Of a DNA stretch of 64,000 nucleotides, positions 9,508 to 29,227 are shown one piece after another. Numbering within the stretch: the stretch's first letter is position 1; each line of letters starts with the position of its first letter. The notes below the pieces were generated by a model. The model made no database searches. It had not been told where the DNA came from and worked only from the letters and a program-made list of their open reading frames with translations. The DNA is from Escherichia coli (lineage in GTDB: Bacteria > Pseudomonadota > Gammaproteobacteria > Enterobacterales > Enterobacteriaceae), in NCBI RefSeq assembly GCF_024502345.1, contig NZ_JALDNN010000001.1; one strand, given 5' to 3'. The position numbers and the translations under genes are program-made.

Positions 9508-9944
9508 GCCGTCACTTCCTCTATCCGGTTGGTATCAGCACGCACATCACTGTGCTCGCCCGTCCGGCAGGTGAGGCAGTAGCGCTCACCGTGGTAATCA
9601 CTGCCGCAGCCGTGACAGTGCCAGTCTGCGTAGAAAACCAGGGGACGGGCTTCCGGTACATAAGACTGCAGTTGCCGGATATGGCGGGTCTCCCTCACCC
9701 CGGGCTTTACATACGGGCAGTGCTGTCGACCGTTCTCCGAAAGCTTTGCTGCATGATGTTCAAACCACGGACGTTCGGTGTCGTATTCAGGATGGTACTG
9801 CAGGGCACTGGCACACAGATGGCAGCTGTAGCGGTCATACGGCGCGGTCTGCGCGGTTATGGCTCCCGTGAGACGGCCGTTGCCGTCCAGAGCCATAAAC
9901 GATTTTGCATACATAGTGGTACTCTCCTTACCGCCAGACGACAC
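9495..9944 (-). CDS. cysteine-rich protein, paralog of 9091..9507 (putative zinc-binding)
   Basis: RPWFEH, WHCHGCGSDYHGERYCLTCRTG; overlaps the downstream paralog by 13 nt. Confidence 0.5.
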   Translation of the reverse strand: MSSGGKESTTMYAKSFMALDGNGRLTGAITAQTAPYDRYSCHLCASALQYHPEYDTERPWFEHHAAKLSENGRQHCPYVKPGVRETRHIRQLQSYVPEARPLVFYADWHCHGCGSDYHGERYCLTCRTGEHSDVRADTNRIEEVTACAC

Positions 9945-10054
9945 GCAGGCGTCAGCCGTCCCGGTACGGGCAGCGTGGCAGGGTGAATGGCGGTTCAGTT
10001 ATGCGTTAGCGGGTCGGTACGGTTGGTGGTCGGCACCGGAATACAGAAAGGTTA

Positions 10055-10186
10055 CGGTTGTGCAGGTGCGTCGGTGGGTCTGAAACAAACGGGACAGGGT
10101 CTGGCGCCACAGTACTGTCGCCGGCAACGGGGACACGTCCAGCGAACCGGGATGGCCTGTGGCTGAGTGCGGCGTCGTTTTTCCAT
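10055..10186 (-). CDS. small zinc-ribbon protein (43 aa) just downstream of alpA
   Basis: Not in track. MEKRRRTQPQAIPVRWTCPRCRRQYCGARPCPVCF… ; a second copy sits at 30804..30917 with the same C-x2-C-R-R-x-Y-C-G-x2-P-C-P-x-C pattern. Confidence 0.4.
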
Positions 10187-10203
10187 TCAGATATCCTCCC
10201 TGC

Positions 10204-10443
10204 TCAGACGCCACGGGAATCAGCAATACGCTGCTGCATCCAGGCTTCCACCTCGCTTCTGCGCCAGCGGGAGCTGCGCCCCAGCTTGATGGGTTTCGGA
10301 AACAACCCGTCGCCAATCAGTTTGTAAAACCATTTGTCGGTCATCCCGGTAAACGTGGTGATAAAGGTCATGTCGATAAGCGGGTCCTGAGCTGAAAGCA
10401 GTGTGTCAGGGCTGGCATTAATATTCGTATTCAACGTGGTCAT
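10204..10443 (-). CDS. alpA: AlpA-family phage regulatory protein (HTH)
   Basis: …DPLIDMTFITTFTGMTDKWFYKLIGDGLFPKPIKLGRSSRWRRSEVEAWMQ… is the canonical AlpA sequence signature. Confidence 0.85.
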   Translation of the reverse strand: MTTLNTNINASPDTLLSAQDPLIDMTFITTFTGMTDKWFYKLIGDGLFPKPIKLGRSSRWRRSEVEAWMQQRIADSRGV

Positions 10444-10595
10444 GGTATTTTTCTCCCTCTGAGGATATGGCTATCGGGAGACGTCCGGTGGTGGTTGAAT
10501 CATGGGGTTACCGGTTCTCCTCAGAGGATAGGGGAACGTTGTAAAAAATTACCCGGCCCGCACAATCAGGCCTGATGAATCGAGATATGTCTGGC

Positions 10596-11201
10596 TCAGC
10601 CACGGCTGCAACCGAAGTTACGCTCACCGTCACCGGTGATTTTGGTCTCCAGCTTGGCTAAATAGGCCGCCTGCGACAGGGCCTGTTGCAGTTGAGCACC
10701 ATCGCCACGTGTCAACCATGAGACTGGACTCGCCGGGAAACGAGCCAGAACGGCATGCGCCTGTGCATCCACCTTCAGGGCGCTGCACCACGCTTGTTTA
10801 ATCATACCTGCAAGCGAATCCGGGTCTTTGTAATCTCCCGGTCCGCACCACGTATCGCGGTTCAGCAACAGCACCGCGTGGTAATGCTTCTTCCCTTTGA
10901 TTTCACCAAACTCCCGCGCCCAGATAAAACGCAGCGTGGTCGGCCAGACGCGTTTGCCCTCGCGACGTTGACGCGTCTGAAGGGCATCAATCCGGGCTTT
11001 CAGGGAATCGGTGAAGCGGGAGATAACAGCAGCATCGGTGGCCGCTGGCGTATCCGGCAGACGGAGGTCAACACGCAGGGCCAGTAAGCGGGTGTAAGCG
11101 TTAAGAGCGCAACTGAAGGTATCAGCGATGCGTTGCTGCCAGTAAGGGTCGTATGTGTAACTCATTAAAATGGACTCCGGTGGGTTATCGTTCATAACCA
11201 T
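10596..11201 (-). CDS. YagK/YfjJ-family (inovirus Gp2-like) protein
   Basis: …KRVWPTTLRFIWAREFGEIKGKKHYHAVLLLNRDTW… shared with the 38217..38948 paralog; true start may be the internal Met (MSYTYDPYWQ). Confidence 0.7.
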   Translation of the reverse strand: MVMNDNPPESILMSYTYDPYWQQRIADTFSCALNAYTRLLALRVDLRLPDTPAATDAAVISRFTDSLKARIDALQTRQRREGKRVWPTTLRFIWAREFGEIKGKKHYHAVLLLNRDTWCGPGDYKDPDSLAGMIKQAWCSALKVDAQAHAVLARFPASPVSWLTRGDGAQLQQALSQAAYLAKLETKITGDGERNFGCSRG

Positions 11202-11336
11202 TACCGGTGCTGTTAAAAAAAACTTATTGCCTTCAGCGAGTCCGCCAGTCGATCCCTCAGAGACGGCTGGCTTCAGTAAAATATCGTGGCTGGCAGAATG
11301 ATTGCGTAAAGGGTAATCGCCTCTCAGAAATCGGTT

Positions 11337-11762
11337 CTAATGCCGGGTGACCCGAAGGCTGCGAAAAAACAGTCTTCCCGTTAGACGATGGCGGGTACGC
11401 TTGACATAAGCGGCGTCAACGAGTTCATCGGGTGGCAAATCACGGGTGATATTACAAATCGTCGCCAGTGCTGTATCGGAGAGTTTAAAACTCCGTGACA
11501 AGGCGTAGTAATCCCCGGTTTTTTGGTTACTGATGTTATCGAATAACGCTCTGAAGAAATCCGTCTGTGAAGGTCTGCGGGCGTTGATAATTGCCTCTGT
11601 CGCTTCATCCCTGAATGTTACCTCCACCTCTTCCATCCCCAGTGAGCGAATGATCCCGGCAATGTCAGGCCAGTAGCGAAGATCGAAACTGTTAAGTCGC
11701 TGCAATTCTGGCTTACAGAAGCAGCTGAAGATTGCGATGCCCTTGTATTGACCTGGACCCAA
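11337..11762 (-). CDS. hypothetical protein (141 aa), possibly a gene fragment
   Basis: ORF in track; no confident family assignment. Confidence 0.3.
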   Translation of the reverse strand: MGPGQYKGIAIFSCFCKPELQRLNSFDLRYWPDIAGIIRSLGMEEVEVTFRDEATEAIINARRPSQTDFFRALFDNISNQKTGDYYALSRSFKLSDTALATICNITRDLPPDELVDAAYVKRTRHRLTGRLFFRSLRVTRH

Positions 11763-18277: not shown

Positions 18278-18673
18278 ATGAGACTAGCCAGCCGCTTTGG
18301 ACGGACAAACCAGATCCGTCGCGATCGTCCGTTAACCCGCGAAGAACTGATGCAGGTCGTTCCCAGCGTATTCAGTGCAGATCGCCACGGTTCCAGGAGC
18401 GAAAAATACGCTTACATACCCACCATTACTCTGCTCGAAAATCTTCAACGCGAAGGCTTTGAACCCTTCTTCGCCTGCCAGTCACGCGTACGCGACCCTG
18501 ACCGCCGGGAGCACACCAAACATCTGCTGCGCCATCTTTGTAGACCGGAGAATGATGTTTGGATGAAAGCGAGTTTTGGTACCCTCATCATTGAGGGTAC
18601 CAACAGCAAAATACTCGGCGAATGCTATTGTCTAAGCACAGCGCCAAGCCTTAGCGGCACGAATAGTTGTTAA
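18278..18673 (+). pseudogene. DUF932-family (YafZ-like) gene, 3'-truncated after about 86 codons
   Basis: First 86 aa colinear with the intact paralog at 44557..45375; similarity ends near 18537, where unrelated sequence and the RM cassette begin. Confidence 0.75.
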
Positions 18674-18675
18674 CC

Positions 18676-21414
18676 TTACTCAGCTTTAGCAAACTGCTGG
18701 GTGAAGTAAGCCAATGAATTAGCTTCTTTTACGGCATCATGCGGAATGAGTAAGTATTTCCAAGGTTTGCCACCGTGCTGTGCAAGGTATTCACTGGCAT
18801 GACTACACCATTTCACACCACTGCGGGCTTTTTCGGTGACTTCCTCATTCCAACTGCCGTCTTGGTTTTGATGTTGAGTACTTTTAGTTTCAATCATCAA
18901 TACATAGTCGGCGGTTTCAGCAACGAAATCCGGCACGTATTCAGGATGCTCGCTACCGCGTTTGTAGTACATCTTGAATTGGCCTTTGGCAGGCTTAAAC
19001 CACTTCTCGCAGTCGCGTTCTAAAATCACCGCAAAACGGCGCTCAGTGTCTGAATCAAACTTTTGCAATGGGTATAGACAACGGCTAAAGCCGCCAAAGA
19101 GCATTTGTTTGATGCGACTGACATCGCGTACTGTATCACGGTAGCTTTGCACCGGCTGGTCTTGCGCTATGGTGTAAGCGCAGTCACGTAAGGTACTAAA
19201 GCCACTGCGTACATCGACGACGTACTCGGTTGCTTCTTCAAAGAAGTGGTTGTTCAGTTGCGCATGAATTAACTTCGCAATCGCATCACTCTGGTTTTGC
19301 AGAATGTTCTCAACCACATCGTCGTCGTTTTCAGCGGCCAGTGTATTGACAGCTTGAGTGGCTAGGTCAAACAAAAGTTCAGCTTGCTCGTCGTAAGGAA
19401 TATCGTCGTAATCGAACAGCTTCTTCAAAATATAGTTTTGTTTCACCGGCTCGTAGTTGCCCGAATCGCCTTCGCCACGAATGGTTTGGTGATTGTCTTG
19501 CAGGCTTTGTTGAATCAGAGTTCGGTCGATAGGTTTTAAACCTTTAATGGCAGCAATGTCCAAATCGAACGGGTGATAGCCGGTACGTACTTCACCTGAT
19601 GGTGAAACAATAATACGCGGAATATCTATGGTGTTATCCACCGTGAGCTGGGTGACTTGCTCAACAATCGCCGCAATATCCACCGATTCTTCAGTAAATA
19701 GCTCCCGTTGCTCTTGGGTTAACTGAGCTTTTACTTGTTCGGTGATCTGTGCTTTTACCTCAGTCGTTAACAATGCTTTGCTGGTCGGCGCATCGGTAGG
19801 GCGTGTTTGATATTGCTTGATCACGTCCAATGCAGCGCGGGCAACGGTTTGTTGGTTAGGCGTGGTATAAGTGGCTTTAGGTTCTTGTACCTCACGGTTA
19901 CCGTCTGCACCGGTTGCGGTTACACCTGAACCAGTCAGTTGCTGCTCTAGGTTCGATTTAACCTGCACACTTTGTTTGGTTACATCGTCTTCTGGGCGAT
20001 CTAATACGCGTGTTTTCAGGCGCAGTGGGTTATTCGGGTCGTTAGCCTCATCAACAATTTCTTGGAATTTGTCGTGCGCAACAATGCTCAGCGTATCGAC
20101 GGCTTCAACACCTGTACGTTTGCCATAAGGTAAACGCAAACCACGGCCAATTGACTGTTCAATTAGGGTTCTGGCGTTGGCTGCACGTAGTGGCACAATG
20201 GTGTACAGGTTAGTAACGTCCCAACCTTCTTTCAGCATGTTAACGTGAATGACGATCTCGGTTGGCTCATCGACATGCTCAACATTGAGCAGTGCTTGAA
20301 TAGTTTCTTCTTCTTTTTTACTGCTATCCACTTGAATGACTTTGCCACGGTAGCGGCCGTCAAACACTGTTTCAAGTTTGGTTAAAAGCTCTGCTGCATG
20401 CGTGGTATCACGGGCAATCACCAACATAAAAGGCTTAACTAACTTAGCATCGTTTTCATGTGCATAAGTGATTAAATCCACCTTGGTTTGCTCATGTAAA
20501 CGAATACCGTCCATTAACTTAATGGTTTCTAGTTCGTCTTTATCATATTGGCTGGCATCAAAGTTACGCTGAGTAACAACGGCAGGCTCTTTAACAAAAC
20601 CATCATCCATGGCACAGGCCAATGGGTAATCAATCACCACATTTTTAAAGTGCACAGGGCCACGACTTGATTCGGTAAATGGTGTGGCCGTTAGCTCTAA
20701 TGCGAATAGTGGATTAAGCTCATTGAGCGCACGCATACCGGCATCGGCACGATAGCGATGCGATTCGTCCATCAGCAGCACTAAGTCAGGTAAGTTCGAT
20801 AGATACTCAAAGTAGCTTTCGCCTAGGGTTTCCGCTAAACGCTTAATACGCGGGGCTTTGCCTCCACGTACTTCGGTGTTAATTTTCGCGATGTTAAACA
20901 CATTGATCCGAACCGAACCAAATAGATCGCCCATGACTTGTGCGCCGCGGCTCTCATAGTTATCACCGGTGATCACTTCTGGCGGTGCTAGCACAAAATC
21001 GGTAATGCCTTTAAACACGTACTTCGGTGAGGCGGGCGAGAAATCGCTGATCAGCTTTTCATAAATAGTCAGGTTAGGTGCCAACACAAAATAATTGCGA
21101 ATGCCATGTACCTGATACAAATAGGTAATAAACGCCCCCATCAAACGGGTTTTACCTACACCTGTTGCCAAGGCAAAACACAGTGAAGGAAAGTCACGTT
21201 CAAAATCGCTGAGCTTAGGAAACTGCGCTTTTAAGGTTTCTAATAGCTCCGGCACATCGCGTTTTGGGTTCAGTAGTTTGTGCTCAGAAGCACTAATCGC
21301 CACTGCCAACGCACGCAGCGAATCTTGCTGCGGCTGGCGTAAGCTTAAACGGCCAATAATATTATTAATGGCACGTAATTGGTCGGGTTTTAAGCTTGAT
21401 AAATCCATGGTCAT
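18676..21414 (-). CDS. Type III restriction enzyme Res subunit (SF2 helicase + PD-ExK endonuclease)
   Basis: Helicase motifs I ATGVGKT, II DESH, VI QSIGRGLR; C-terminal PD…ETK (YVPDFVAETADYVLMIETK); directly downstream of the Mod gene. Confidence 0.85.
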   Translation of the reverse strand: MTMDLSSLKPDQLRAINNIIGRLSLRQPQQDSLRALAVAISASEHKLLNPKRDVPELLETLKAQFPKLSDFERDFPSLCFALATGVGKTRLMGAFITYLYQVHGIRNYFVLAPNLTIYEKLISDFSPASPKYVFKGITDFVLAPPEVITGDNYESRGAQVMGDLFGSVRINVFNIAKINTEVRGGKAPRIKRLAETLGESYFEYLSNLPDLVLLMDESHRYRADAGMRALNELNPLFALELTATPFTESSRGPVHFKNVVIDYPLACAMDDGFVKEPAVVTQRNFDASQYDKDELETIKLMDGIRLHEQTKVDLITYAHENDAKLVKPFMLVIARDTTHAAELLTKLETVFDGRYRGKVIQVDSSKKEEETIQALLNVEHVDEPTEIVIHVNMLKEGWDVTNLYTIVPLRAANARTLIEQSIGRGLRLPYGKRTGVEAVDTLSIVAHDKFQEIVDEANDPNNPLRLKTRVLDRPEDDVTKQSVQVKSNLEQQLTGSGVTATGADGNREVQEPKATYTTPNQQTVARAALDVIKQYQTRPTDAPTSKALLTTEVKAQITEQVKAQLTQEQRELFTEESVDIAAIVEQVTQLTVDNTIDIPRIIVSPSGEVRTGYHPFDLDIAAIKGLKPIDRTLIQQSLQDNHQTIRGEGDSGNYEPVKQNYILKKLFDYDDIPYDEQAELLFDLATQAVNTLAAENDDDVVENILQNQSDAIAKLIHAQLNNHFFEEATEYVVDVRSGFSTLRDCAYTIAQDQPVQSYRDTVRDVSRIKQMLFGGFSRCLYPLQKFDSDTERRFAVILERDCEKWFKPAKGQFKMYYKRGSEHPEYVPDFVAETADYVLMIETKSTQHQNQDGSWNEEVTEKARSGVKWCSHASEYLAQHGGKPWKYLLIPHDAVKEANSLAYFTQQFAKAE

Positions 21415-21435
21415 TATAATTATCCTTATTAACCG

Positions 21436-23142
21436 TTAATCTTGCGCTGCATCGTCATCGGCAGACGCATCGTCAGTTAGGTTTGCCACGTTTAACGAAT
21501 AATCGTCCTGACCAAATTGGCACTTGTCTAAAATGGCTTTTGGCAGTTTTTTCAAGGTTAAATTGGTAAAACGACCTGGCTCGCAGCGAAATGCACCACA
21601 CATAACCAGTAAAGTTCGGTCACTGCCAACTTCTTCTGACAGCGCTTCTAATTTATCTACCGATAAGCTTTGTGTGGTGACATAAATATGATCCGTCTCG
21701 GTTGAATAACCGTGATCCCACCAATTCACTTCCGATGGCGCATAGGTAAAACCTTCCAGCTTACAAACGGCTTCGGCGAGCATTTCTGGGTTGTACTCTT
21801 TATTGATCACTTCCAAGCCAAACTTATCTTTCACAATTAAGGTCGGGGCAAGTTTGTAATAGCGGAAGCCACCGCCACCTTGCCAGTTTACAGACTTAGA
21901 AATACCACCTTGATCTTCGCCATCAATCACTTTTTGCAAGCGCGGGATAATATGGGTATGACAATGATCACCTAGCTCGACCGAGATCCAACGTCTTTTC
22001 ATCTTGTGAGCTACAGCAGCAGTAGTTCCCGAACCACCGAATGAATCAAAGACTAAATCGCCTTCTCGCGTACACATTTCGAAAATCCGCTTCAAAAGCG
22101 CTTCGGGTTTTTTTCCATTTTTGAAACTAACGCCGCCTTCATTTGCTATTCCATTCCAACTAATGTCAGTCCAAACATCAGTTATTAGTTCAGCAGGTTG
22201 CATCTCACCGTCAATTTCCAAAAGCCTATTGGAGTAAAAGACCATTTGCCTACCATTTGCGATATAAAAGCCTTCGACATCCTCATTTGGATGTACATAA
22301 ACCTTATCCCTATCTTTCTTTGACTTCTCGATAGTTTCTTTTCTCTTTATTTTAGCACCACCACCAATTGCAACGGATTGAAATACACGTTCTGCATTAT
22401 CAATTGCGAATTGTGCTAATTCATCATCAAATGTATCAGGCAGTTTTTTCTTGGCTTCTTTTGTATCTTTATAGCCATTGGCCTTTGCAAACGCATCGGC
22501 AATACCGCACCACGTCCAACTTTTATAATGGTCATCTGGGTTTAATAGATATTTGTTATATCCCGTATCATATCCTTTAGGTATATAGATTTTGTTAAGC
22601 GGTTTCTGGGTGCGATCTTTTGCGTATACAAGCAAAAAGTTTACTGTGGAGAAAACTGTGGCCCCTGTTGCCTTAAAGCCTGAAGGGTCATTTGTGGTCA
22701 TCGATATGGTATTTAACTGATTTGCACGACCAAAAATCTCGTCCATCAAAACTTTTAAATAAGCCATTTCGCAGTCATCTAAGTGAACGAATATTACTCC
22801 ATCATCACTTAGTAGATTACGAATTATTTCTAACCTATCCCTCATTAAGCCCAGCCAAATGGAATGCTCCAGACCATCATCATAGTGCTCAAAAGCACTT
22901 CCGGTATTGAATGGTGGGTCTATGTAAACACACTTCACTTTGCCTGCATATTCTTGCTCTAGCGCCTTCAATGCCAATAAGTTATCGCCAAAAATCAGTT
23001 TATTATCAAAAATATCGTTTTCGGTCACTTTTTGGCTGGCGTGATAAGACTTGCTCGGGTCTTCTAACAAAATGCGCGGCTCTAACTTTTTGCGCTCGTT
23101 TTTGCCTATCCAGGTCAGTTCTAATTTGGTTTTGCTCATCAT
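21436..23142 (-). CDS. Type III R-M Mod subunit (N6-adenine/N4-cytosine class DNA methyltransferase)
   Basis: Motif IV DPPFN and SAM motif FDSFGGSGTT; mod-res gene order with a 21-bp gap. Confidence 0.85.
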   Translation of the reverse strand: MMSKTKLELTWIGKNERKKLEPRILLEDPSKSYHASQKVTENDIFDNKLIFGDNLLALKALEQEYAGKVKCVYIDPPFNTGSAFEHYDDGLEHSIWLGLMRDRLEIIRNLLSDDGVIFVHLDDCEMAYLKVLMDEIFGRANQLNTISMTTNDPSGFKATGATVFSTVNFLLVYAKDRTQKPLNKIYIPKGYDTGYNKYLLNPDDHYKSWTWCGIADAFAKANGYKDTKEAKKKLPDTFDDELAQFAIDNAERVFQSVAIGGGAKIKRKETIEKSKKDRDKVYVHPNEDVEGFYIANGRQMVFYSNRLLEIDGEMQPAELITDVWTDISWNGIANEGGVSFKNGKKPEALLKRIFEMCTREGDLVFDSFGGSGTTAAVAHKMKRRWISVELGDHCHTHIIPRLQKVIDGEDQGGISKSVNWQGGGGFRYYKLAPTLIVKDKFGLEVINKEYNPEMLAEAVCKLEGFTYAPSEVNWWDHGYSTETDHIYVTTQSLSVDKLEALSEEVGSDRTLLVMCGAFRCEPGRFTNLTLKKLPKAILDKCQFGQDDYSLNVANLTDDASADDDAAQD

Positions 23143-23196
23143 TTCTGTGCTCTTATCTTGTGTTCGTTACTTAGCGTTATTATTCTACAGCAATCG

Positions 23197-25062
23197 CTAC
23201 GCAGGTTGTGCTTGGCGATTACTCGCTTGGGTGTTTTGCCCTTGTCGGCGTTGCGCTTGCTCGGCTAAGTAACTGAATAAATTCTGGTTGTGTGGGTCGT
23301 TCGCTTGAAGGCGTTCTTGTTTTGCTACAACTGCCGGGCTTTCTGCCAAGTTTAAATGGCTAATCCACACCGTTTGCATTAAACGTGCGGTATCGCCCAA
23401 GCGTTTGAAGTATGCGTGCGGCGCACTGCCTAATACTAATGCCGTAAAACTATCAAAAAATTGCTGACGAAGTTCATCAAAAGCGTGGCTGATTAATCTT
23501 TTAAATGCCGCTTGCTCGGTAATCTCAGGAGCCGTAATAGCGCCTTCAAACTGCGCCATTAATAGCGTGGTTATGCAGTAAGTAAAATGTCGATATACCA
23601 GTTTTTCTGGGCTTGGACTACTGCGCTCTGCGTTTGTACATAAGACTTGAATAGCCAGATAGCAGTTCACCGCGTTAATGGCGACGGCCCCCTGTAAATC
23701 TGTACTAAAAACGGCTTGGTACTCGGCACTTTCTTGGTTAGTGAATTTGCTTGGCTCTACTTTTAGCTGATAAGGCACGCGTACATCACCGTGCATACAG
23801 GCCAATGCTTTGGCCAAGGTGTCGATAGTAATGCTGCGAATACCCGCTGCTGCGCTTTGTTGTGGGCGGTAGAGATATTCAACACCAAACATTTTCATCT
23901 CTTGGCGCAAGCGTTCTTGGGTATCATCCAGCGCGGCAAAGTTGGCTAAATCGACCGGGTTTTGCAGGTTACGCGCTTTGGTTACTTGTTTGTGAAATGC
24001 ATCGTTACCCGTGTTGATAATGGTTACCATCACTTGAGCTTGGCTGATGTCTGCATTTGGGTTTTCACGCATAAACTGTGCAGCACTAGCAATGGTTTGT
24101 GCACCGTTAACGACGGACAGGCCATCGACTGCAACATGCTTGCTACCTGTGTGGCCTCTAATATTCCCTTTTGGTTTTACTGCATTGCCAACCAGAGTAA
24201 TGCCATTGTTAAGATAAATAAAATTTTCCGGCTCATGTAAAAGGGTGTCTTTAATCGCCCTATTTACCCCACGTCTGCCAGCACCAATAAAATAGCGAAT
24301 ATTTTTCTCGTAAAGTTTACGGTCATGAGTAGTGTGCAAGGCAATTAAATCGGTTAGCTTGGCGATACCAAATACGACTTTTCGTGGTTGTTCTTGCACT
24401 CGGAACTTATATACAGCGACACGCTCGTTTACCGTATCAACCGCATGTTCACTGCGAAGAGCCTGCTCAACATCGGTGGCGGTGTATTCTTGATATTCAG
24501 GTGCGATTTGCTCTTCACCTTCATCAATCAGCTCTTGGATCGCTGGTTGTAGGTAGTTTTGTGCTTGTATGGTAATGCCATTACCTGTGTATGCGACAAG
24601 CAGTTGAATTCTTTCGCACTCGTCTAATGCGGCTTCAATATTTGCTTGAAGGTTTTGAACATTTTGATTAAAGCGGTGAAATTGCTTGTTTAAAAGTAAC
24701 TTTACACCCTCAATAAAAGCCTGTGCTTCGCCCAATTGGAATTGCGCATCTTCCTTCATTTTTGACTGTACTAAGTACAGAGTCTGATCAGCTTCGTGAT
24801 AATAAATTGCATCAATACCATGGTCTTCATAGTCGTCCACCACAGCTTTTGCTGCGGTCACTACGTCTAAATCGAATTTTTGCTGTAGTACGAATGCGCT
24901 AAAAGCCCTGGAAATTTGCTTTTTAGGTTTATCTTCTCGCCCACCTTGCCCAAGCAATGGCGGTAAATGCGGCACAAAACGCTGCTGTAGCAGTTCTTTT
25001 AATAGGGTAAGAAATTGTGGTTGTAATGCTGCCAAGTGAGTTGTCCTTATTTTTATTGCCAA
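23197..25062 (-). CDS. large abortive-infection-like protein, tentatively AIPR family (621 aa)
   Basis: Size and context (between an Abi_2 gene and an RM system) and a remembered VVNGAQT-like block; family assignment from memory only. Start overlaps the upstream stop by 10 nt. Confidence 0.4.
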
Positions 25063-25994
25063 ATTGGCCGCGCTTGCCAGTCGGCTGGAAAGCCCATGCG
25101 GTCAATGTCTATTTGGTGATGATTTATCAATTGGATGAGTCGTTGCTTCCAGTGATGTTCACCACTGATCACATCCATGAGGTAGCCCAACATCACCAAG
25201 GTGTTATAAATTTTTCGTAAACGCCGGTCGCTATCGGGCAGGTTTTGCAAGCTTTGAATCAGTGCCGGTTCACCATGGCGTGGCAGTACCGTGGTTTTAA
25301 TAAAATCACGGTTCCATAGCCTAGAATGATGGGCACTTAAATTGCGCACTAGCGACAAATGCTCACAGAATGAGGTAAGAGTTTTTTCATCTAGGCCGTA
25401 GCTTTTGCTTATTACCTGGCGGTCGGCACGCAGCTTGATATTGCTGTACCAACAGGAAAGTTGCCCCATGGTTAACAGCTCAACACAGGCCCAAATAGGG
25501 GGTAGTGGCTCTTGATATTTTTGCGTAAGGTGCTTGATGAACTCTTCACGACTGCACTTTACCTCACCCGTGAGTTTGCCAAGGCTACTGGCGTATTCTA
25601 ATAAATCACCAAAGAGCTCTGGTTTTAAATGAGGGTGCGCGGTTTGGTATTTTTGGCTCAACTGATACGCAATTTGTGTGCGTAATGACACCTCAAAACG
25701 CTCGATGGCATCTAGCACTAACAAACGTAGTTCACGGTCGAAAACATATAGGCTTAGGACTTGGTCAAACTGAGTACCTGTGATAAACGTATGACTGGCA
25801 TGATCTTGCTCATAGGGCAAACAATAAGCCGCAAAACGATAGTAGTTCAGCTGTGCTAAGTAAAACTCAGCTTTCGGGACATCACTGATCACTAGGCCAC
25901 GTTGTTGCAACAAGCGTACTTGATCGCTAAAGCTTGTAGGGGGCTTGGTAAAAGCGACTTTAGGGACTGGTTTGCGGCTCATTTGACCTCCCAT
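25053..25994 (-). CDS. Abi_2-family (AbiD/AbiF-like) abortive infection protein
   Basis: 313 aa with N-terminal …[17 protein letters not shown]… signature, which I recall as typical of Abi_2 proteins. Confidence 0.55.
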
Positions 25995-26139
25995 GCAACA
26001 GAAGATCGAATTTTGCGGGCCCCAGAAACGAGTAACCCCTCACAGGGCGCTGATCTGACGGGTAGCGGGAGGGGTGTTGTTGCAGTGATCATAGCCCCAA
26101 ACTGAAAAAAGTCAATGCTGGCGTTGAAATTGATTGTCA

Positions 26140-29034
26140 TCATTGAACCGTCCACCCAATGGTAAATAGGGTCTCTTGGCTGGTTTTTTTATTCAGTTTG
26201 CCTTCTAAGCTTTCAATCAGCTGTTCGCGCTTTTCGTCCACTTCATCTTGTTTATCAAACAGTTCACGGCGGCTTTTATTGCGCTGACTTTCTAACTGGC
26301 GCTGCTGTTTTTGCAGGGCAAGTTTCTCTTCCAGGGTTGGAGCTATTTTGGCTTCGCGGCGTACTTGCTTGATTTGCTTATCAAGCTCTTTTATAGATTG
26401 TTCAAGCCCTTCTTTTAAATCGTCTGCCCAAGAATCTAACTTGTTTACCTCTTGCTCGAAGAAGCTGAGATTACGATCGTTAACTTGCTTTTCGATGCCT
26501 AGTCTCGACTGCTGTAACGCATGCTGCAGCGCATATTGATAGCCAGGATATAAGGCGGCAAGTTCTTGCTCACTTACTTCACTTTGCACACAGGCACTAA
26601 GCTGCATCAGCTTTTGCACGACTTCACTTGGTAGCGGATGACCATGTTCATCTTGCGCGGCGAACAATAAATGGTCTTCGCTACGCTCCAATGATTCGAC
26701 ACTAAATTTTTGTAGGCTTAGTACACCTGACAAACCCACTAAGGGTTCTAGCATACTGATTTTTGTTTGGTGGTTGCTGTAATCAAAAATTACGCTGGCA
26801 ATGGGTAATTCACGTTGAAGCGCGTTGCTGATCACCCATTCACCCAGCGGGTGGGTGATACGATACACATGGGCATTGGCTAGTTTACCGGTTTCAATAC
26901 TGCCGCTTTGCTGTCCTCGGCGTACAAGTTGGTAGCTACCTGTAGGAGCCTGATTGATACTTTGATTAAGCGTAAAACTATGGTTGCTTGGGTCAATGTC
27001 TGCGATAGCTGCAAGTTCATGCGTACTGAGTTGCCAGAACCAACGGCCTACTTTATCGAGGCGTTGCTGCGCGGCATCTAGCTGAATTTTGAGTAAGTCG
27101 TGAATATCTTCATCGAAATTTTCCAGCAGCAGTTGCTGGGTCTCGCGCATTTTTTGGTTGATGTCGGCTTCTAGCTCTTTTTGCAATTGATCAAAAGCTG
27201 CTTCTATTTCCGCCGGTTGCCGACAAGTCTCGTATATATTTTGGATGCGTTTTTCAAAATCAATACCAGATTCAATGCTGCCTAGCACATCGTCCGATGC
27301 ACCAAACACGCCATCGAACAGATGGAATTTTTCAGTCAGTAACTCTAAAACACGCTGATCGGCTTTGTTGGCTTCGTTGAGGAAGTTGATCACCACAACA
27401 TCAAATTGCTGCCCATAGCGGTGACAACGGCCAATACGTTGCTCTACTCGTTGTGGGTTCCATGGTAAGTCATAGTTAATAAGTAACGAACAGAACTGTA
27501 AGTTAACCCCTTCTGCAGCCGCTTCGGTTGCGATCATAACTTCGGCATGATGGCGGAAGTAATCAATTAGGGCAGTACGGCGGTCAATTTGCGGTGAACC
27601 ACTCACCTTATCACTACCTTGGTTTTCAGCTAACCACTGCTGATAAACTTTGGTTGCTTCTGGATGGTTATTGCTGCCACTAAAGGTGACTAATTTATCA
27701 GCAAAGCCATTCGCCTCGAGGAAACGAGCTAGGTATTCTTGCGTGCGCTTCGATTCGGTAAAAATAATGACTTTACGTGGCGCCCCCATTTCCTCCATTT
27801 TGGCAAACCCTTGATTAAGCGCCGTTAGCAAGGCTTGGGTTTTACTGTCGGTGGTAATGGATTTAGCCTGCTCGATATAATGCTCAAGCTCGGCTATTTC
27901 AGCATTGAGTAACTCAAAGTCAATATCACTCTCAGGGGTATTGCTTTGTGTTTCTTCTACATACTCGCTGTACTCTTCTCCTAAATCATCACTCTCAACA
28001 AGCTCACTGATAATATCGAGGTCCGATTTAGCCTGTACTTTCAAGTCAACCAATCGGCGCTTTATAGTTTCGAGTGTGTTGAGCACTGCGTGCGAACTAG
28101 ATGCTAATAGCTTTCTCAGTATAAGGCCGGTTAAATGACGTTGGCTCTTGGGTAGTGCATAGCTCTCGTCCTTTTCCAATAAGGCACTAATACTTTCGTA
28201 AAGTGCCATCTCAGCATTAGAGGGTGTAAACGGTACGGTGAGTGTTTGACGTTGGGTATAGCGGACGTATTCGAGTACATCTTTGCGCAAGGTACGCTGA
28301 ATAAACCCGGTAAGTCGTTTCTTTAAATGCCCTAGCGCACTTTCGTTATTGACAAAGTGTTGTTTGAAGCTTCGCTCATCGCCGAAGATTTGATCGTCGA
28401 TAATGGTTGAAAGTCCATACAATTCCATGAGCGAGTTTTGTAAGGGTGTTGCAGTAAGTAATAGCTTTTTACTGCCATCTAATGCGCGGCGTAGCGTTTG
28501 ACCCATTTTATTGCTGCTACGATGTGCATTACGTAGCTTGTGCGCTTCGTCGATGACGACAATATCCCATGGCTCTAGCATTAGCTGCGTTTCCATTCTC
28601 GCAGCATAGTGATAGGACATAATAGAAACGCAGTGATTAGCTAGCGGGTTAGTTTGACCATTGTTAACACTAATGCGCCACGTTTTTGCATCAAGCACTT
28701 GCGTTGGTAAATTAAACTTATCGCCCAATTCCTGCGCCCACTGGCGTCGCAATGACGCCGGGCAGATGATCAATATGCGGCGTTTACGCTCTGCCCAATA
28801 CTGTGACAGTACTAAGCCTGCTTCAATAGTTTTCCCTAAGCCCACTTCATCAGCGAGTACAACACCTTTGCTTAACGGGTTGTTGAGCGCAAAAAGTGCC
28901 GCATGAATTTGGTGCGGATTGAGATCAACACTGGCATCAAAAAGAGATTGAGACAATTTATCAACGCCATTTTCAGCGTGGCGAATGGTTAATTCCTGCG
29001 CAAAGTATTTTGCTTGATAATCAGTTATTACCAT
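26140..29034 (-). CDS. SNF2-family helicase (about 965 aa) with C-terminal coiled-coil-rich region
   Basis: Motifs I LADEVGLGKT, II VIDEAHKLRN, III LLLTATPLQN, VI QRIGRCHRYGQ. Start set at MVITDYQ (29034) so that overlap with the upstream HTH gene is 14 nt rather than 95. Confidence 0.85.
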   Translation of the reverse strand: MVITDYQAKYFAQELTIRHAENGVDKLSQSLFDASVDLNPHQIHAALFALNNPLSKGVVLADEVGLGKTIEAGLVLSQYWAERKRRILIICPASLRRQWAQELGDKFNLPTQVLDAKTWRISVNNGQTNPLANHCVSIMSYHYAARMETQLMLEPWDIVVIDEAHKLRNAHRSSNKMGQTLRRALDGSKKLLLTATPLQNSLMELYGLSTIIDDQIFGDERSFKQHFVNNESALGHLKKRLTGFIQRTLRKDVLEYVRYTQRQTLTVPFTPSNAEMALYESISALLEKDESYALPKSQRHLTGLILRKLLASSSHAVLNTLETIKRRLVDLKVQAKSDLDIISELVESDDLGEEYSEYVEETQSNTPESDIDFELLNAEIAELEHYIEQAKSITTDSKTQALLTALNQGFAKMEEMGAPRKVIIFTESKRTQEYLARFLEANGFADKLVTFSGSNNHPEATKVYQQWLAENQGSDKVSGSPQIDRRTALIDYFRHHAEVMIATEAAAEGVNLQFCSLLINYDLPWNPQRVEQRIGRCHRYGQQFDVVVINFLNEANKADQRVLELLTEKFHLFDGVFGASDDVLGSIESGIDFEKRIQNIYETCRQPAEIEAAFDQLQKELEADINQKMRETQQLLLENFDEDIHDLLKIQLDAAQQRLDKVGRWFWQLSTHELAAIADIDPSNHSFTLNQSINQAPTGSYQLVRRGQQSGSIETGKLANAHVYRITHPLGEWVISNALQRELPIASVIFDYSNHQTKISMLEPLVGLSGVLSLQKFSVESLERSEDHLLFAAQDEHGHPLPSEVVQKLMQLSACVQSEVSEQELAALYPGYQYALQHALQQSRLGIEKQVNDRNLSFFEQEVNKLDSWADDLKEGLEQSIKELDKQIKQVRREAKIAPTLEEKLALQKQQRQLESQRNKSRRELFDKQDEVDEKREQLIESLEGKLNKKTSQETLFTIGWTVQ

Positions 29035-29227
29035 CCAACACCCCTTTTCCTTGAGCTGCTTGCGTACTGATCCATTCTTCAAGATCGGATTGTTTAAAGC
29101 GCCAAGCATTGCCAACTTTAAAAGCAGGAATTTTATGTACCGCTGCTAGACGGTAAACAGTTCTCTCATTTACCTTCAAATACTCAGCTACTTCTTTAAT
29201 TGTCAGAACGGTATCAGTCATTTTCAC
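29021..29227 (-). CDS. small helix-turn-helix DNA-binding protein (excisionase/MerR-like HTH)
   Basis: LTIKEVAEYLKVNERTVYRLAAVHKIPAFKVGNAWRFKQSDLEEWI is a typical HTH_17-type pattern; overlaps the SNF2 start. Confidence 0.7.
   Translation of the reverse strand: MKMTDTVLTIKEVAEYLKVNERTVYRLAAVHKIPAFKVGNAWRFKQSDLEEWISTQAAQGKGVLDGNN

Follow-up and report, generated by a model that had tools for sequence, protein, structure and literature searches.

Two short ORFs in a 64,000-nt stretch of Escherichia coli DNA (the window) are almost certainly real protein-coding genes, and the product of each is very probably a homologue of the Zn_ribbon_11 domain (PF11682), judging from sequence comparison. Both ORFs come directly after genes for AlpA-family regulators. 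The best overall explanation of the data, favoured here with modest confidence, is a real gene for a basic, stand-alone Zn_ribbon_11-type protein that follows alpA and acts with AlpA. The family would then consist of strongly basic zinc-ribbon proteins of 30-60 aa, encoded in YagK/YfjJ-AlpA modules on the genomic islands and megaplasmids of Enterobacterales.

Small ORFs at the ends of alpA genes

The window contains two modules in which a small ORF follows alpA. The features of these two junctions are:

10204..10443, minus strand: alpA1, AlpA-family regulator gene (79 aa), directly 5' of ORF1
10194..10200, minus strand: Shine-Dalgarno (SD) sequence GGGAGGA of ORF1, 7 nt 5' of the ATG, read from sequence
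10052..10186, minus strand: ORF1 (small gene 1), stop codon included, 44 codons, MEKRRRTQPQAIPVRWTCPRCRRQYCGARPCPVCFRPTDAPAQP
30914..31144, minus strand: alpA2, AlpA-family regulator gene of module 2, PGAP CDS WP_032216528.1 in identical records
30922..30929, minus strand: SD-like sequence ACGAGGAG of ORF2, within the final alpA2 codons, read from sequence
30804..30917, minus strand: ORF2 (small gene 2), 37 codons, MKRVVMPVRCQCAKCRRWYCGNQPCPWCWRHSRSSFC

An earlier first-pass annotation of this DNA gave the length of ORF2 correctly as 37 codons, but counted 43 codons for ORF1 where there are 44. It also located ORF1 correctly, but its span of 10055..10186 left out the stop codon. The motif that it described as common to the two ORFs, PVR-x2-C-x2-C-RR-x-YCG-x2-PCP-x-C, matches both exactly. 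The predicted proteins each have a net charge of +8, with a pI of 10.7 for ORF1 and 9.7 for ORF2. Codon 10 of ORF2 (30889..30891) is TGT, encoding Cys, whereas TGG, encoding Trp, is found there in nearly all relatives, the position being conserved in at least 90% of the family; with Cys at this near-invariant Trp position, the window copy of ORF2 may be slightly impaired. The AlpA1 protein matches Phage_AlpA (PF05930, E 1.6e-8) and HTH_17 (PF12728, E 1.4e-5) in Pfam, and PGAP labels it either “AlpA family transcriptional regulator” or “helix-turn-helix transcriptional regulator”. AlpA2 is 68% identical to AlpA1 (tblastn).

The association with alpA was examined in a way that avoids circularity, by back-translating the invariant core of the small protein into a degenerate pattern, in which 22 bases are fixed, and scanning public collections for it. 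The pattern was matched at least 120 times in metagenome contigs and once in 2.9 million viral contigs. Among the 121 motif-anchored matches listed, 119 have alpA directly upstream of the small ORF, and one of the exceptions is at a contig end. The 119 listed loci encode 63 distinct proteins, and the small ORF starts with ATG in 110 of them. The place right after alpA is constant, whereas all other neighbours vary. The small gene is thus essentially always linked to alpA, in the same operon. Conversely, the small ribbon accompanies only some AlpA clades, being found at 21-25 of 80 alpA1-related loci.

The spacing of the two genes fits translational coupling. ORF1 starts 17 nt past the alpA1 stop codon, whereas the ATG of ORF2 overlaps the alpA2 stop codon as ATGA. 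This overlap, already reported in the first-pass annotation, turns out to be the commonest arrangement: relative to the end of the alpA stop codon, the start lies at -4 in 70 and at +17 in nine of the 119 loci listed, and starts range from 10 nt before to 17 nt after that point. The SD-like site ACGAGGAG is conserved at ORF2-type loci, and most ORF1 orthologues have a similar purine-rich site 5' of the start. The frame of the small ORF relative to alpA differs between lineages, which argues for a separate cistron set for translational coupling and not for a read-through extension of alpA. This layout, with an overlapping or abutting start and an SD in or just past the 3' end of alpA, suggests that ribosomes terminating on alpA should initiate at the small ORF. 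AlpA and the ribbon would then be made together.

A further arrangement occurs at five Kosakonia-type loci (L011, L108, L137, L182 and L192), where the small gene lacks an ATG, GTG or TTG start. At the expected position there is a conserved ATA, 7 nt past GGGGAG and immediately after the alpA UGA. This position suggests that the ATA is a weak near-cognate start or a termination-reinitiation site. The two genes are joined in frame in some sequences. In P0005 (locus L213, 30..320), known from a single contig, the alpA stop codon is lost, while P0028 and the 104-aa proteins P0024, P0026 and P0032 (loci L214 and L215, 2501..2815) are fused through deletions that remove the AlpA C-terminal helix. 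At two other loci, L110 and L190, the ribbon is fused to the next gene, which is YagK/YfjJ-like, giving products of 250 and 234 aa.

Conservation, distribution and annotation of the small gene

A search for relatives of AlpA1, with one genome per species, returned 80 loci in Enterobacterales. Just after alpA, 21 of these loci, which represent about 14 genera, have a small ORF whose core reads W-x-C-x2-C-x-R-x-Y-C-G-x2-P-C-P-x-C, and four more loci have decayed remnants of it. Carrier genera include Siccibacter, Citrobacter, Kosakonia, Hafnia, Yokenella, Trabulsiella, Klebsiella, Mixta, Rosenbergiella and Serratia. The proteins are 36-60% identical overall; their invariant residues are four Cys, one Arg and one Gly, and a Trp and a Tyr are nearly invariant. 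Given that the core recurs after alpA in so many genera and metagenome contigs, the likeness of ORF1 and ORF2 goes far beyond chance. The frame is therefore kept downstream of alpA elsewhere, in agreement with the view of the first-pass annotation that the two ORFs are real genes.

A comparison of substitution rates, which that annotation proposed for the two copies, was run across the family, and it points to purifying selection in the frame of the small ORF only. Over a core of 25 codons, 19 unique sequences give a pS of 0.74, which is near saturation, and a pN of 0.22, for a pN/pS of about 0.3; these ratios are indicative rather than exact, since the sequences were picked by motif and shared ancestry is uncorrected. 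Column entropy in the same core is 12, 15 and 32 at codon positions 1, 2 and 3, respectively. Four of the other five frames have a ratio of at least 1, and the fifth, an antisense frame that shares third positions, is interrupted by stop codons in 11 of the 19 sequences. The same frame-specific pattern is seen when the ORF1-type and ORF2-type subfamilies are taken separately.

It has to be considered whether translation of the ORF, and not the peptide, is what matters, with ribosomes covering the mRNA and preventing polarity on downstream genes. This cis-acting role would suit the close coupling of the ORF to alpA and the stretch of about 110-160 nt, itself untranslated, that separates the ORF from the next gene. 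It is nevertheless highly improbable, because four Cys, the Arg and the Gly are invariant and the Trp and Tyr nearly so, with a low pN/pS at synonymous sites that are near saturation, and because terminator-like elements are not above shuffled expectation.

There is likewise very little probability that there is no functional gene at all, and that the ORF arose by chance over a conserved DNA or RNA element or is a decaying relic of a duplicated Zn_ribbon_11 segment. Gene finders almost never call the ORF, and several copies are frameshifted, truncated or without a start codon. Broken copies include a frameshift (L084), a deletion (L086), a nonsense mutation at codon 4 (L103), a frameshift near the start (L012), an internal stop (L137) and a stop at the last Cys (L076). 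However, variation is concentrated at third codon positions in the small-ORF frame only, and about 14 genera retain both the frame and the Cys core at a protein identity of 36-60%. Moreover, the Cys core is intact in all nine E. coli copies that were picked irrespective of annotation, with alleles of 30, 37 and 50-51 aa. An RNA element was looked for with Rfam at both ORF sites, where no family matched, and a terminator or attenuator was looked for with consensus scans, which gave no more sites than shuffled sequence.

Two other ORFs that overlap the small genes were considered and rejected:

30646..31026 in the window (1144..1296 in L085), minus strand: hydrophobic peptide frame, +1 relative to ORF2, called by PGAP in some strains
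9987..10166 in the window (4021..4200 in L216), plus strand: antisense 59-aa ORF WP_131334065.1, a PGAP “hypothetical protein”

The hydrophobic peptide over ORF2 (MPALVLW...LVLATLPLIFLL, WP_152950218.1) has a pN/pS of 2.15 and a stop codon in L089, and so behaves as non-coding. The antisense ORF over ORF1, called by PGAP on Klebsiella megaplasmids, has a pN/pS of about 2.2, which indicates that it is non-coding; it is a mis-call that arose because the real small gene was missed.

Records with 100% identity to the window have no PGAP annotation for either ORF1 or ORF2, and PGAP calls at the ORF2-type locus include a frameshifted product (WP_000831962.1) and a deletion variant (WP_001342704.1), both wrong. 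The small-ribbon family is seen just 44 times in protein collections, and many of these entries were called since a frameshift or fusion had lengthened them. A few short entries, from Serratia, Citrobacter and E. albertii, are already assigned to PF11682 or named “putative zinc ribbon protein”. At the DNA level, ORF2-like sequence is found in 2,579 of 5,426 complete E. coli genomes, with one to 7 copies each, and the carriers include O157:H7, O104:H4 and O111 strains; most of the matches listed have no annotated feature beneath them. A tblastn search with the small protein against 50,697 phage records gave no match.

The peptide strings were also looked for in the ribosome-profiling supplements for O157:H7 Sakai (Hücker et al. 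2017) and were absent from them. In Sakai SpLE1 (L212, NC_002695.2 1429236..1429692), AT-rich sequence replaces alpA and the small ORF, while ECs_1376 and ECs_1377, homologues of the genes downstream of ORF2, are kept. An intact O157 copy of the small gene (as in L087) lies elsewhere in the genome than SpLE1.

Sixteen plasmids, 213-477 kb in size and found in Klebsiella, Raoultella, Citrobacter and E. coli, encode the ORF1 protein with 100% identity. Of 23 ORF1-matching plasmids, 16 are typed as conjugative, one example being an IncFIB/IncHI1B NDM-1 plasmid. Module 1 as a whole (7767..11762) shares its WP accessions with plasmid NZ_CP095633.1 (L216), of the Klebsiella IncFIB/IncHI1B NDM-1 megaplasmids. 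The proteins in common are a hypothetical protein, a Gp2-like protein, AlpA, two DUF7828-Zn_ribbon_11 proteins, a YagK/YfjJ protein and a DUF2913 protein. The identical accessions indicate that module 1 moves between chromosomes and plasmids.

The island around the small gene is of the CP4-44/CP4-57 type, with DUF932, antirestriction, RadC, YeeU/CbtA and DUF4942 genes. A defence cluster (18676..29115, minus strand) separates the two modules and immediately follows module 2, downstream of it on the same strand. It encodes a type III restriction enzyme (912 aa), a methyltransferase (568 aa), an AbiU-like protein (621 aa), AbiD (313 aa) and a DrmD-like SNF2 helicase (991 aa). A 131-aa ORF at 18278..18673 corresponds in position to an 819-nt DUF932 gene in a colinear reference genome, so the defence cluster appears to truncate the DUF932 gene. 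Between the Gp2-like gene and alpA1 there is a terminator-like hairpin (10555..10572, minus strand), GGCCTGATTGTGCGGGCC followed by a T-rich tail; it could be relevant if this AlpA antiterminates, though such sites are not above the shuffled count. Elsewhere in the window, a group II intron RNA domain (1910..1996, minus strand; Rfam RF00029, 64.9 bits) adjoins a 507-aa ORF (2000..3523, minus strand), which is probably the intron reverse transcriptase/maturase because a related locus annotates ltrA.

Relationship to Zn_ribbon_11 and other small zinc proteins

Evidence for the relationship to Zn_ribbon_11 came from several profile comparisons. In a Pfam scan of 21 family members, PF11682 is the sole family that recurs, with six of the 21 at E <= 1e-3 (best 3.2e-6) and 17 at E <= 0.1, and no other Pfam family reaches 1e-3; ORF1 on its own matches weakly (E 0.027), so that the profile match holds for the family while the copies in the window stay below threshold. 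When the alignment of small proteins was compared by hhalign with 25 C-terminal ribbons of DUF7828 proteins from the same loci, the match extended over 25 ungapped columns with an E of 1.7e-5 and a probability of 78%. The small proteins and the fused Zn_ribbon_11 domains have in common the spacing W-x-C-x2-C-x3-Y-x-G-x3-C-x2-C and the same invariant columns. The “zinc-ribbon” label applied to the two ORFs in the first-pass annotation is backed by this homology.

Wider searches returned few relatives. A profile search of 1.84 billion representative proteins found 29 at E <= 1e-3, about 20 of which belong to the small-ribbon family or are fusion or frameshift artefacts. Another protein, P0055, is of the DUF7828 type and has a ribbon close to the small ORF, making it a bridging sequence. 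With ORF1 as a single query against 5.8 billion proteins, only a frameshifted 61-aa variant was recovered, and relatives emerged when an alignment was used. Neither peptide had a significant match in NCBIfam, PHROGs or PDB sequences, the sole PHROG match having an E of 0.51. No mention of PF11682, DUF7828 or the peptide strings, and no description of the YagK/YfjJ-AlpA module, was found in the searchable literature.

Two paralogous Zn_ribbon_11 domains are encoded in module 1:

9118..9228, minus strand: Zn_ribbon_11 domain at the C-terminus of the DUF7828 protein 9091..9507
9543..9626, minus strand: Zn_ribbon_11 domain at the C-terminus of a second DUF7828 protein, ORF 9495..9944

Both proteins match PF25165 and PF11682, the latter with E 2e-18 over residues 94-130 for 9091..9507 and E 8.8e-11 over residues 107-134 for 9495..9944, for which PGAP places the start at 9914. 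The two genes (both on the minus strand) are tandem paralogues that overlap by 13 nt. The DUF7828 N-terminal domain of their products has a CxxC...PWFEH motif, and presumably resembles the N-terminal zinc element of CoiA-like proteins.

The small proteins resemble PF11682 members in the spacing of Cys, Trp, Tyr and Gly, and their genes are found in common operons with genes for DUF7828-Zn_ribbon_11 proteins. They differ from them in several respects. The usual architecture places PF11682 C-terminal to DUF7828 in proteins of 130-150 aa, whereas the small proteins have 30-61 aa and no DUF7828. They add a conserved fifth Cys (Y-C-G), a P-C-P motif and an invariant Arg. They are also strongly basic, with a mean net charge of +8.2 (range +5 to +12) at about 43 aa, in contrast to about 0 for fused Zn_ribbon_11, and their genes have a fixed place directly after alpA. 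A few stand-alone members are already named “putative zinc ribbon protein” in RefSeq and UniRef. The stand-alone, basic, alpA-linked ribbon is a distinctive form of a known domain family, and its gene is a genuine one that has been missed.

The homology raises the main rival explanation, namely that the small protein reproduces in free form the ribbon that ends the neighbouring DUF7828 proteins, and competes for or shares the target of that ribbon independently of AlpA. Free and fused ribbons are homologous with identical spacing, and a DUF7828-Zn_ribbon_11 gene is directly downstream at 14 of 16 ORF1-type loci. Such a gene is likewise downstream at 18 of 22 loci with the small ORF, compared with about 22 of 60 loci that lack the small ORF (Fisher p = 4e-4). 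While these associations are consistent with mimicry of the fused domain, they do not extend to ORF2-type loci, the great majority in E. coli, where a DUF7828-Zn_ribbon_11 gene is downstream in 0 of 76 and upstream in 10 of 54. In addition, the charge of +8 on the free ribbons, with the fused ribbons neutral, suggests different surfaces, and the invariant neighbour is alpA, not the DUF7828 gene. Mimicry of this kind is accordingly rather improbable.

The AlphaFold model of the small ribbon is of moderate confidence, with a mean pLDDT of 67 and 75-78 in the core, and contains a beta-hairpin knuckle with strands at residues 15-17 and 24-26. Four Cys are invariant, and a putative Cys4 zinc-ribbon fold, with two CxxC knuckles on a beta-hairpin that would bind one zinc ion, accords with this model. 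Foldseek searches against the PDB gave generic zinc-ribbon likenesses only, with E > 5. The ribosomal proteins bL32, bL33 and uS14 and the rubredoxin knuckles are basic, of similar size, and have two CxxC knuckles on a beta-hairpin; they are the best matches but not significant, at E 0.4 or worse by sequence and above 5 with Foldseek.

Among small zinc proteins of mobile elements, P2 Ogr and P4 Delta are Cys4 zinc transcription activators of satellite and helper phages of Enterobacterales. The elements that bear them also carry AlpA/Vis-type genes, and Ogr and Delta turn on the operons of the element through RNA polymerase. By analogy, the small ribbon might work in a similar way. The Cys spacing differs, however, with no sequence relationship, and scanning ORF1 and each of the 21 family members against Pfam gave no match to the Ogr_Delta profile.

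Possible roles of the ribbon alongside AlpA

AlpA proteins of other elements provide the context for the favoured reading, that of a ribbon acting with AlpA. AlpA of E. coli PICIs activates PICI operons (PMC6092414), and AlpA of Pseudomonas aeruginosa is an antiterminator that binds RNA polymerase (PMC7969949, PMC9371919). Across the systems of PICI AlpA, P. aeruginosa AlpA and P4 Vis, AlpA switches on an adjacent operon or promotes excision (PMC6092414, PMC7969949, PMC9371919). A small zinc-ribbon partner is not mentioned in the accessible text of these reports, where the PF05930 regulators act alone.

In the proposed mechanism, four of the five conserved Cys would hold one zinc ion, and the arginine-rich surface and tail would bind nucleic acid or RNA polymerase. 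When the island switch fires, the ribbon would join AlpA and either activate or antiterminate the downstream operon or promote excision. Such a role, in which the small protein binds DNA, RNA or RNA polymerase and works with AlpA in regulation, is the most plausible one but is put forward tentatively. A stronger form of this proposal, in which the ribbon is an obligatory second subunit of this AlpA clade and the switch is a complex of the AlpA winged helix and a basic ribbon that contacts DNA, RNA or RNA polymerase, is unlikely. An AlphaFold model of AlpA joined to the ribbon through a linker, made with a paired alignment of 30 AlpA-linker-ribbon sequences, gave a pLDDT of about 90 for AlpA and an unchanged value of about 75 for the ribbon, with a pTM of 0.41. 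It contains no sign of an interface, and it gives support neither way.

The small protein may instead act apart from AlpA, as a basic zinc protein directed against a component of the host, a phage or a rival element, for example as an inhibitor or anti-defence protein, with its place after alpA serving co-induction only. The lack of a predicted AlpA interface would be in keeping with this, as would the carriage of the gene as cargo of mobile islands and conjugative megaplasmids and the location of module 2 directly upstream of the defence cluster. An independent effector would not be expected to hold a fixed place right after alpA while other neighbours are variable, or to occur fused to AlpA, and PADLOC-type and PHROG families gave no match. 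This alternative is therefore given a low probability.

The finding has consequences for annotation and for the interpretation of AlpA function. A conserved gene is omitted by standard annotation in about half of complete E. coli genomes and in NDM-type Klebsiella megaplasmids. A simple rule recovers it, namely an ORF with the Cys motif no more than 20 nt from the alpA stop codon, which makes a case for better small-gene calling. Deletion of alpA, or a polar insertion in it, would also remove the coupled small protein, so that phenotypes could be misassigned. If the ribbon were indeed an obligatory subunit, studies of AlpA from Enterobacterales islands would have missed a component, its gene being invisible to annotation, and its presence could explain why AlpA homologues behave differently across elements, in excision, activation or antitermination.
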